From: a virus | Lineage: Duplodnaviria > Heunggongvirae > Uroviricota > Caudoviricetes | Direction: 5' to 3' (one strand) | IMG/VR virus record: IMGVR_UViG_2778261300_000002 | Coordinates: 1 to 32,996 of that record | DNA: 32,996 nt | Part shown: positions 7,971 to 9,442 of the stretch, piece after piece | Layout: every line of letters starts with the position of its first letter | Numbering within the stretch: position 1 is the stretch's first letter | Notes under the pieces: generated by a model | The model's input: the letters and a program-made list of their open reading frames with translations, nothing else | Databases searched by the model: none | What the model was told of the DNA's origin: nothing | Translations under genes and position numbers: made by a program

Positions 7971-9442
7971 TCATCCTCTCCGGATAAGGCACGGGCGTAA
8001 TCTGCCAGTGTTTTCTTGTTGGTTGCTGCACCATCCTCTTCCTGCAGGCTCGCCAGCAGCGCACTGAGATCCAGCTGCCAGCGGGAAATACTGATGCGCA
8101 GCGCCGCCAGCGCATAAACGAAGCAGTCGAGCGCCTCATTGCGTCGCTTTTTGCTGTCCCACAGTATTTTTTTCCTGCCATCCACCCATTTTTCGACCTG
8201 CTCTTCAGCCGTCAGCTGCTGCGCTTCGGTCAGATCAAAAATATCCGGGTTATTCGGGAAGTGAACGGCACCGGGAACGGGCGCTGAATAATGCTCTTTC
8301 CGCTCCGCCATCACCTCAGCATCCGGACGTTCGCCAATTTTCGCTTCCCATGTCTCACCGAGCGTGGTGTTCACGAAGGTTTTACGTTTTCCCGTATCCC
8401 CTTTCGTCTTCATCCAGTCTTTGACAATCTGCACCCAGGTGGTGAACGGGCTGTACGCCGTCCAGATGTGAAAGGTCACACTGTCCGGCGGCTCAATCTC
8501 TTCACCGGATGACGAAAACCAGAGAATGCCATCACGGGTCCAGATCCCGGTCTTTTCGCAGATATAACGGGCATCAGTAAAGTCCAGCTCCTGCTGGCGG
8601 ATGACGCAGGCATTATGCTCGCAGAGATAAAACACGCTGGAGGGGTCATCCGGCGTCCATTTGAGGCCAAACGGCGTCTCTTTGTCGCCAAATTTAAGAT
8701 ACTGCTCCTCCCCGCAGTGCGGGCAGGCAACATGAAAACGCATAAAATGCGGGGATTCACTGGCTGCACGCTCAATCTGGCAGGTGCCTCTCACTTTGGG
8801 CGTGGAGCCACGGATGGACTTTGGCCAGACCGAGCCTTCAATACGTTTGTCGCCAAGGAACGTCGGAGAGCCTTCCTGTTCAATATCCTCATCAAAGGCA
8901 GCAAGTTCATCATAACCCGCCACATCCACCGACTTTTCACGGTAGTTTTTTGCCGCTTTACCGCCCAGGCACCAGAAGCCACGACCATTGGAAAAACGCT
9001 TCATAGTGAGCGTGTTATCCCGGTGCTTTTTGCCATACCACGGAGCCAGCGCCAGCAGCGACGGAATATCGCGGATGGTCGGCTCAACGTGGGTTTTCAT
9101 AAAGTTCTCGGCATCAGCATCCGTCGGCAACCAGATAAGGGTGTTGCGCTGCTTATGCTCTATAAAGTAGGCATAAACACCCAGCAGCATTTTGGAATAA
9201 CCGACACGGGCAGACTTCACCACATTCACCTCACGGATGTAGTCGCTGCCCATCGCATTCATGATGGCCCGCTGAAAGGGCAGTGTTTCCCAGCGCCCTT
9301 CCTGGTATGCGGATTCTTTCGGGAGATAGTAATTGGCATCCGCCCATTCAACGGCGGTCTGTGGCTCCGGCCTGAACAGTGAGCGAAGCCCGGCGCGGAC
9401 AAAATGCCGCAGCCTGTTAACCTGACTGTTCGATATATTCAC
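7967..9442 (-). CDS. A: Terminase large subunit A carrying an internal in-frame deletion (491 aa versus 641 aa in lambda)
   Basis: N-terminus [23 protein letters not shown]... and C-terminus ...[29 protein letters not shown] match lambda gpA; about 150 aa absent between ...[11 protein letters not shown] and [10 protein letters not shown]... (junction near nt 8270). Confidence 0.85.

Follow-up and report, generated by a model that had tools for sequence, protein, structure and literature searches.

The open reading frame at 7967..9442 on the minus strand of the window (the whole 32,996-nt stretch of DNA analysed) is the lambda gene A, encoding the large terminase subunit gpA, minus exactly 450 bp. 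This in-frame allele, here called A', encodes 491 aa and is, in all likelihood, a decay lesion created by microhomology-mediated deletion in a defective E. coli lambdoid prophage of the Rac site, a young and unselected remnant of probably recurrent origin.

A' runs from a GTG start at 9442 to a stop at 7967-7969, and its product is identical to the RefSeq protein WP_097483209.1. Its start is overlapped by the gene of the small terminase subunit Nu1 (9417..9962, minus strand, 181 aa, Pfam Phage_Nu1), and it is followed by the head-tail joining gene W (7764..7970, minus, 68 aa) and the portal gene B (6166..7767, minus, 533 aa), all three of full length. A previous sequence-only reading of this DNA had described just such a 491-aa A beside a Nu1 of 181 aa, a W of 68 aa and a B of 533 aa, and the ORF coordinates on the minus strand bear it out. 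By megablast against 50,697 phage records, 80 align with the whole 1476-bp A' in two pieces over 1926 bp, the best match being PhiR68_2 (99.7%). Compared with the intact A genes of PhiR68_2, Lambda_2E9 and E. coli C41, A' likewise matches as two blocks spanning 1926 bp of the subject. An intact allele is matched without gaps by 1169 nt at the start of A' and by 311 nt at its end; since these add up to 1480, which equals 1476 + 4, exactly 450 bp (150 codons) are absent and the junction lies inside a TTCC repeat. Intact alleles carry TTCC at gene nt 1166-1169 (left context CCCGTTCC^TGACCG, the caret marking the junction here and below) and at 1616-1619 (right context CCGCTTCC^CGGTGCC), with 450 bp, that is codons 391-540, between the copies. 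A single copy is kept in A' at 8274..8277 (minus strand; gene nt 1166-1169), so that A' shows short direct repeats flanking the lost block with one copy retained, the structure of a microhomology-mediated deletion allele.

The gpA residues absent from A' are 391-540 (equivalently 390-539, P390 and P540 being interchangeable). The kept 5' part (8274..9442, minus) corresponds to residues 1-390, with the N-terminal region, the ATPase/translocase domain and the linker, and the kept 3' part (7967..8273, minus) to residues 541-641. Aligned with two 641-aa gpA proteins, the A' protein shows a single gap block of 150 columns and is 99-100% identical elsewhere, and intact 641-aa alleles share 99.7-99.8% DNA identity with A' on both flanks of the gap. 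Only 4 of 1476 nt differ between A' and the intact A of PhiR68_2; one substitution relative to intact alleles changes the protein, G109A, and homologues vary at this residue. The in-frame gap of about 150 codons, first placed near nt 8270 (within 8240-8300) after ...HYSAPVP, is thus exactly 150 codons long with its junction at 8274-8277.

The deletion leaves one of the two gpA domains in place. Pfam GpA_ATPase (PF05876) is found at aa 47-285 (window 8588-9304; E 6e-51), with a Walker A motif KSARVGYS (aa 76-83) and a Walker B motif ending in VAGYDE (aa 174-179), both invariant across homologues; A' therefore has the N-terminal packaging ATPase domain of a lambda-type TerL, and it stands in the corresponding Nu1-A-W-B gene context. 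The complete RNase H-like endonuclease domain of such a TerL is not present: Pfam GpA_nuclease (PF20454) matches A' over profile positions 2-71 of 294 and a short C-terminal fragment, scoring 101.7 bits against 249.7 in intact gpA. This drop, together with flanks 99.7-99.8% identical to intact alleles, agrees with the proposal that the protein is gpA with a gap. When 26 gpA homologues (71-90% identity) were aligned, 254 residues were invariant, and 60 of these lie inside the deleted block, including Y395, T397, G399, D401, S402, Q403, E408, D424, D465, G468, I469, D470, P471, K490, G491, A492, Y495, G496 and D519. The segment KGASVYGK, which we take to contain K497, is absent from A'.

The structure of lambda gpA has not been determined (PMC9410871), and our sequence search of the PDB for a gpA structure found none. 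For want of one, intact gpA was modelled with AF2 and the model compared by Foldseek. Residues from about 380 to 620 were modelled with confidence (pLDDT 80-96); the ATPase half was poorly modelled owing to a shallow alignment, and the integrity of that domain is judged from sequence identity alone. The Foldseek hits in the PDB were, in rank order, the Sf6 large terminase gp2 (E 8e-6), HK97 TerL, the nuclease domains of Sf6 and HCMV UL89, and RuvC. Based on the model, gpA residues from about 380 to 620 form an RNase H-like terminase nuclease fold. In this fold the first catalytic aspartate stands at the end of strand 1, with further acidic residues later, and endonuclease-null mutations of lambda gpA are located near residues 401-409 and near 586. 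The modelled strands 395-403, 406-414, 420-429, 461-465 and 486-492 all fall within the deleted block, as do the helices 435-445, 471-481 and 518-529. [quoted passage not shown] Past the block the model has a strand (543-546), a helix (554-560), a beta-hairpin (564-579) and a helix (586-605); the kept 3' part thus retains one strand, the auxiliary beta-hairpin, a helix with the invariant E586 and D589, and the C-terminal tail, and the sheet against which it packs is lost. These kept C-terminal residues have pLDDT of 72-95 in the intact model versus 24-51 in a model of the 491-aa protein, AF2 confidence being only a weak proxy for stability.

The terminase nucleases are RNase H-like enzymes with three acidic catalytic residues (PMC9410871, PMC3074133), these acids being D401/E458/D542 in T4 gp17 (PMC3074133) and D302/D388/D471 in HK97 (PMC9410871). 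In lambda TerL, the endonuclease and a second ATP site are in the C-terminal maturation domain (PMC7229814), and genetic evidence for a contact between gpA and the portal is cited in PMC2366019. The domain alignment that had been proposed was carried out, and it places the gap 391-540 in the RNase H-like nuclease core with the ATPase domain kept. Because the gap removes the nuclease core, a defect in cos cleavage and packaging is expected, and from fold and conservation the A' protein should be unable to nick cosN or to mature or package DNA. The description of A' as probably packaging-defective therefore holds as a predicted consequence of the loss of the nuclease core. The N-terminal ~48 residues of gpA touch Nu1 and the last ~32 touch the portal; the A' protein may still bind Nu1, ATP and perhaps proheads.

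The prophage around A' is defective in other ways. The window is 99.5% identical to a prophage of E. coli C41 (bovine, Russia), which lies between uspF-ompN and recE-recT-kilR, the Rac locus. The C41 prophage has a largely intact morphogenesis operon with a 641-aa A, and an IS3 element and a truncated tail-fibre gene downstream of J. Three differences separate the window from it: the 450-bp deletion in A, a 12.75-kb deletion between C and J, and the absence of the IS3 insertion. In the C-J deletion, C has kept its 3' part (S49 protease/scaffold; C' at about 5340-6185, minus), which is now fused to the C-terminal part of J (J' at about 4463-5390, minus) at 5391..5399 on the minus strand, through a 9-bp microhomology, GGATAACCG. 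It confirms the second, independent lesion noticed in the sequence-only reading. Nu3-D-E-FI-FII-Z-U-V-G-T-H-M-L-K-I and most of J were lost with it, leaving none of the major capsid, decoration, head-completion and tail-shaft genes. As the capsid-shell and tail-shaft genes are gone, the prophage of the window cannot make particles, whatever the state of A. This C-J junction was absent from 5426 complete E. coli genomes. At the same Rac locus, strain ZYB62 (L004:11489-14128) has A nt 1180 joined to J via a 4-bp GTGG, in an 879-aa in-frame A-J fusion ORF annotated as "terminase gpA endonuclease subunit", and this lesion starts 11 nt from the left A breakpoint of the window.

Other cargo, including Bor, hok/gef, RecET and an IetAS pair, plausibly accounts for the persistence of the window prophage, and the anti-phage defence of IetAS is itself a plausible ground for retaining a defective element. 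The IetAS pair consists of an S8 peptidase and an AAA ATPase gene at 18517-20772 and 20810-22030, both on the minus strand, with PADLOC scores of 898 bits for IetS and 437 bits for IetA. An otherwise near-identical locus (L007, GCA_040324095.1) carries the tail-fibre segment of 2627-3982 in inverted orientation and is missing some 350 bp; the inversion crossover is at the inverted repeats AACCCAT/ATGGGTT in the context GGGAAACC. By its resemblance to the sites of Din-family (Pin/Gin-type) invertases, this crossover points to a host-range segment that can be inverted. The late-regulatory region, upstream of the lysis genes, encodes a single tRNA-Arg (anticodon TCT) at 13717-13792 (minus), a placement shared by many lambdoid and Stx-type prophages.

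We suggest that an illegitimate deletion between two TTCC copies 450 bp apart would have removed codons 391-540 of A, with the frame kept by chance, as expected one time in three. The 491-aa product would retain the Nu1-proximal N-terminus, the packaging ATPase domain and the last 101 residues, and would lack strands 1-5 of the nuclease fold and the intervening helices, with the invariant D401, E408, D465 and D470 and KGASVYGK; cosN nicking, DNA maturation and packaging would be lost with them. Because capsid-shell and tail-shaft genes were lost independently, the terminase defect would have had no further consequence, and A' would be riding along as an unselected remnant with prophage cargo that is still useful. 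The deletion would be young and, given that gene A breaks recurrently at both of its endpoints, it probably has more than one origin.

The same 450-bp junction in A, identical to the base, was found in the genome of E. coli ECJXMCRH7 (chicken, China; NZ_CP067342.1; L003:18858-20333). This is not the genome of the window, with which only 5391..10154 is colinear, at 97.9%. The ECJXMCRH7 prophage differs in having yfdP/Q/R-type early genes and no Bor, and it bears lesions of its own, a C-D fusion and a truncated FI. Its A' differs from that of the window at 14 nt, of which nine lie left of the junction, at distances of 32-215 bp, and two lie right of it. It corresponds to the intact VCSW7 allele minus 450 bp with 1 other nt different, and the A' of the window to a PhiR68_2-type allele with four differences. 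We find it more economical, and somewhat favour the reading from these haplotypes, that two independent deletions took place at the same TTCC pair. A single deletion, moved afterwards between prophages by homologous recombination in a patch of at most 95 bp, is a possible but less likely account. The identical junction in both lineages is in agreement with it, and lambdoid prophages are known to recombine readily (PMC3945230). However, each deleted allele is a different intact allele minus 450 bp (1 nt from VCSW7, 4 nt from PhiR68_2), the two deleted alleles are 14 nt apart with differences on both sides, a transfer would require one crossover in the 32 bp left of the junction and another in the 63 bp right of it, and other deletions reuse both endpoints independently.

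This reuse was seen in a catalogue of all 90%-identity protein clusters scoring above 833 bits against the query, each aligned to intact gpA, a source in which out-of-frame events are under-sampled. Besides the intact form, about 60 distinct rearranged forms of gpA were found, in most of which the N-terminus of gpA continues in frame into B, C/Nu3, E, L, J or tail-fibre sequence. Internal in-frame deletions number four: 399 to 540, about 350 to 520, 268 to 478, and the present A'. Tandem duplications of gpA were observed in clusters P0031, P0034, P0030 and P0032 (e.g. 1-356 + 282-641 and 1-481 + 385-641), where assembly errors are possible.

The reused sites in A are at codons 350 (window ~8393), 389 (~8276), 465, 489, 519, 539 and 551, and their partners in related loci (L003, L006) also fall at recurrent sites, within B, C, E, L, J and stf. 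For codon 389 (SAPV^), nine or more partners were counted: two J sites, B residue ~118, C/Nu3, the stf start codon, three tail-fibre-like sequences and A541. At least five partners were found for codon 350, at least seven for 489, at least five for 519 and three for 539, the last being the right end of both the A' deletion and the 399-to-540 deletion. From the other side, A389 and A539 share the J sequence TDIRQVETT as a partner, and MRGWTIKGKP has partners at four A sites. Contig DNA confirms two A389 junctions, CCCGTT^ACCGATATC and CCCGTT^GCCGCACC, which are rare (none and one of 5426 complete genomes, respectively). In APEC O78 and several other complete genomes, the J site used by the C-J deletion of the window has A codon 350 as its partner (AAAGGGGATA^ACCGAATCCC).

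Microhomologies of 1-9 bp are present at all junctions examined, and in this the A' and C-J deletions are like the short-homology-dependent illegitimate recombination of E. coli; unlike it, the sites in gene A are reused with many partners and share GGATW or TT^NCC contexts. GGATA occurs five times in gene A, and in the fully listed region 4 of 4 coincide with breakpoints. With partner DNA taken from related reference prophages rather than from each carrier, GGATA lies within 8 nt of 8 of the 32 distinct partner sites, versus 0.71 expected (binomial p ~4e-7; ~4e-4 corrected for 1024 pentamers). Among all sites, whose A-side windows overlap, the count is 13 of 62 versus 1.4 expected (p ~9e-10). 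The A389 and A539 class has TT^NCC on both partners instead of GGATA. At least 12 junctions follow the Asp codon GAT and one follows the synonymous GAC, which points to DNA sequence rather than protein architecture.

Selection at the protein level, with breakpoints clustering in loops or at domain boundaries, is disfavoured by this GAT/GAC skew and by the position of the codon-489 site inside a strand. A hairpin or quasi-palindrome cause was rejected after folding 30-nt DNA windows, which showed no general association with breakpoints: a hairpin loop of notable stability was seen only at the codon-489 site, the codon-389 site ranking at the 74th percentile. The sites were compared by eye with several consensus sequences (Lockshon-Morris gyrase, RuvC (WTT^S), RusA (^CC), DnaA box, Din-invertase, Chi, cosN, IS91 target and CRISPR PAM), none of which fits all sites; by the same comparison, TT^ is similar to the core of the RuvC consensus, and among the GGATA sites several match 7-8 of 9 positions of the DnaA box. 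The site preference was matched to no described mechanism, and a literature search for a breakpoint hot spot or for this gpA deletion returned nothing relevant. We propose, tentatively, that lambdoid morphogenesis genes contain a lattice of illegitimate-recombination sites that are set by sequence and used recurrently, the A' deletion being one of its nodes. The lattice would comprise codons 350, 389, 465, 489, 519, 539 and 551 of A together with the recurrent sites of B, C, E, L, J and stf, linked to each other in many independent combinations, with GGAT(A/T) or TT^NCC at the junctions. If so, a sequence-preferring break-and-rejoin activity, of host or phage, would drive the decay and make identical deletions recur.

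As for age, of the 5426 complete E. coli genomes searched, 3783 contain A-like sequence, with at least 80% query cover in 3173; among the matches listed at that cover, all are in two pieces spanning ~1926 bp, which is the intact state. A 48-mer spanning the A' junction was complete in only one of the 5426 genomes (ECJXMCRH7), and the junction had no match in IMG/VR or JGI metagenome contigs. Counting three drafts in addition to that complete genome, the known A' alleles are 1-4 nt from intact alleles, a divergence too small for dN/dS. The sequence-only reading had taken the lesions as evidence of long-standing domestication. That part does not stand, because nothing in A' indicates age or selection: the allele is rare, is ~4 nt from an intact one and has an intact sister prophage at 99.5% identity. 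Neither purifying selection after inactivation nor a broad or old distribution, as domestication would show, is seen in A'. No selection on the A' frame was found, and a preserved frame is a 1-in-3 outcome. The deletion looks like recent, ordinary prophage decay rather than domestication.

The intact ORF in every copy seen and the presence of the deletion on two haplotypes could nevertheless reflect selection for a nuclease-less terminase. Such a protein might be kept as useful, for example as a decoy that could still bind Nu1 and, through its C-terminal end, the portal, thereby poisoning the packaging motors of superinfecting lambdoid phages. The intact frame of A', the retention of the ATPase domain and of both the N- and C-terminal interaction regions, the same deletion on two haplotypes in two different prophages, and the bona fide defence system IetAS encoded by the carrier prophage would fit this exaptation. 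We regard it as very improbable, however, as A' is confined to one of 5426 complete genomes and a few drafts, with none in IMG/VR or JGI metagenomes, and is almost undiverged from intact alleles, giving no signal of retention over time. Moreover, dozens of other gpA truncations and fusions have breakpoints spread across residues 268-620, as predicted by neutral decay, and these breakpoints track a DNA motif (at least 12 junctions at GAT^ versus one at GAC^) and not a protein boundary. When PADLOC-DB defence profiles were searched, no family matched the 491-aa protein, and the neighbouring IetA and IetS did match.

To the idea that the protein belongs, at its full 491 aa, to a naturally shorter terminase family, or that its gap is an assembly collapse, we give practically no credence: the intact reading frame is the one point in its favour, and against it stand flanks 99.7-99.8% identical to 641-aa alleles, the loss of 60 invariant residues and of the core sheet of the nuclease fold, the same protein in three independent assemblies, and the absence of any internal repeat of more than 4 bp on which a collapse could occur. 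The near-identical flanks and the lost fold core rule out the shorter family, an outcome that had been named in advance as the one that would overturn the gpA interpretation. The independent assemblies exclude the collapse, and a 4-bp repeat leaves nothing to collapse. These assemblies, each encoding the identical WP_097483209.1 protein, are GCA_040324095.1, GCA_002518655.1 and the Logan assembly of SRR29736265, the last built directly from a public run. The window matches GCA_040324095.1 over 15.5 kb with one mismatch, and it shares its tail-fibre arrangement with GCA_002518655.1.

Among known systems, A' is closest to lambda gpA itself (641 aa, PF05876 + PF20454), with 98-99% aa identity over residues 1-390 and 541-641, the same Nu1-A-W-B operon position, the Walker A and B motifs and the C-terminus; it differs in lacking residues 391-540 (strands 1-5, D401/E408/D465/D470 and KGASVYGK), with a predicted loss of the endonuclease. 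The cryptic prophages of the E. coli K-12 type, with nohD-A' fused to a tail-fibre assembly gene, are a similar case of gene A decaying by deletion with Nu1 (noh) kept. In those remnants the match to A ends at nt 308, adjoining tail-fibre assembly genes, and large deletions join A to distant tail genes, whereas the A' deletion is internal and in frame, with both ends kept. The packaging ATPases of the phi29 gp16 type likewise combine a packaging ATPase domain with a C-terminal portion unable to cut DNA (PMC9410871). Nonetheless, gp16 has a complete though inactive RNase H-like fold and serves unit-length, protein-capped genomes, unlike A', in which the fold is destroyed and whose phage family needs cos cleavage.

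On its own, A' matters little, being one more lesion in a prophage already unable to build particles, and its protein is already in RefSeq. The RefSeq name "terminase gpA endonuclease subunit" is given to proteins without the endonuclease core (WP_097483209.1, WP_219360876.1), and also to A-J, A-portal and A-tail-fibre fusion ORFs. Caution is advisable in prophage-completeness calls and terminase-based typing, as a well-placed and apparently intact terminase ORF matching both Pfam domains can be dead. The recurrence of the deletion and the reuse of GGATA and TT^NCC breakpoints are the only part that would perhaps repay further work. Should a mechanism with sequence preference lie behind these breakpoints, the decay of prophages could be predicted in part, and finding identical deletions would be no proof of common descent.
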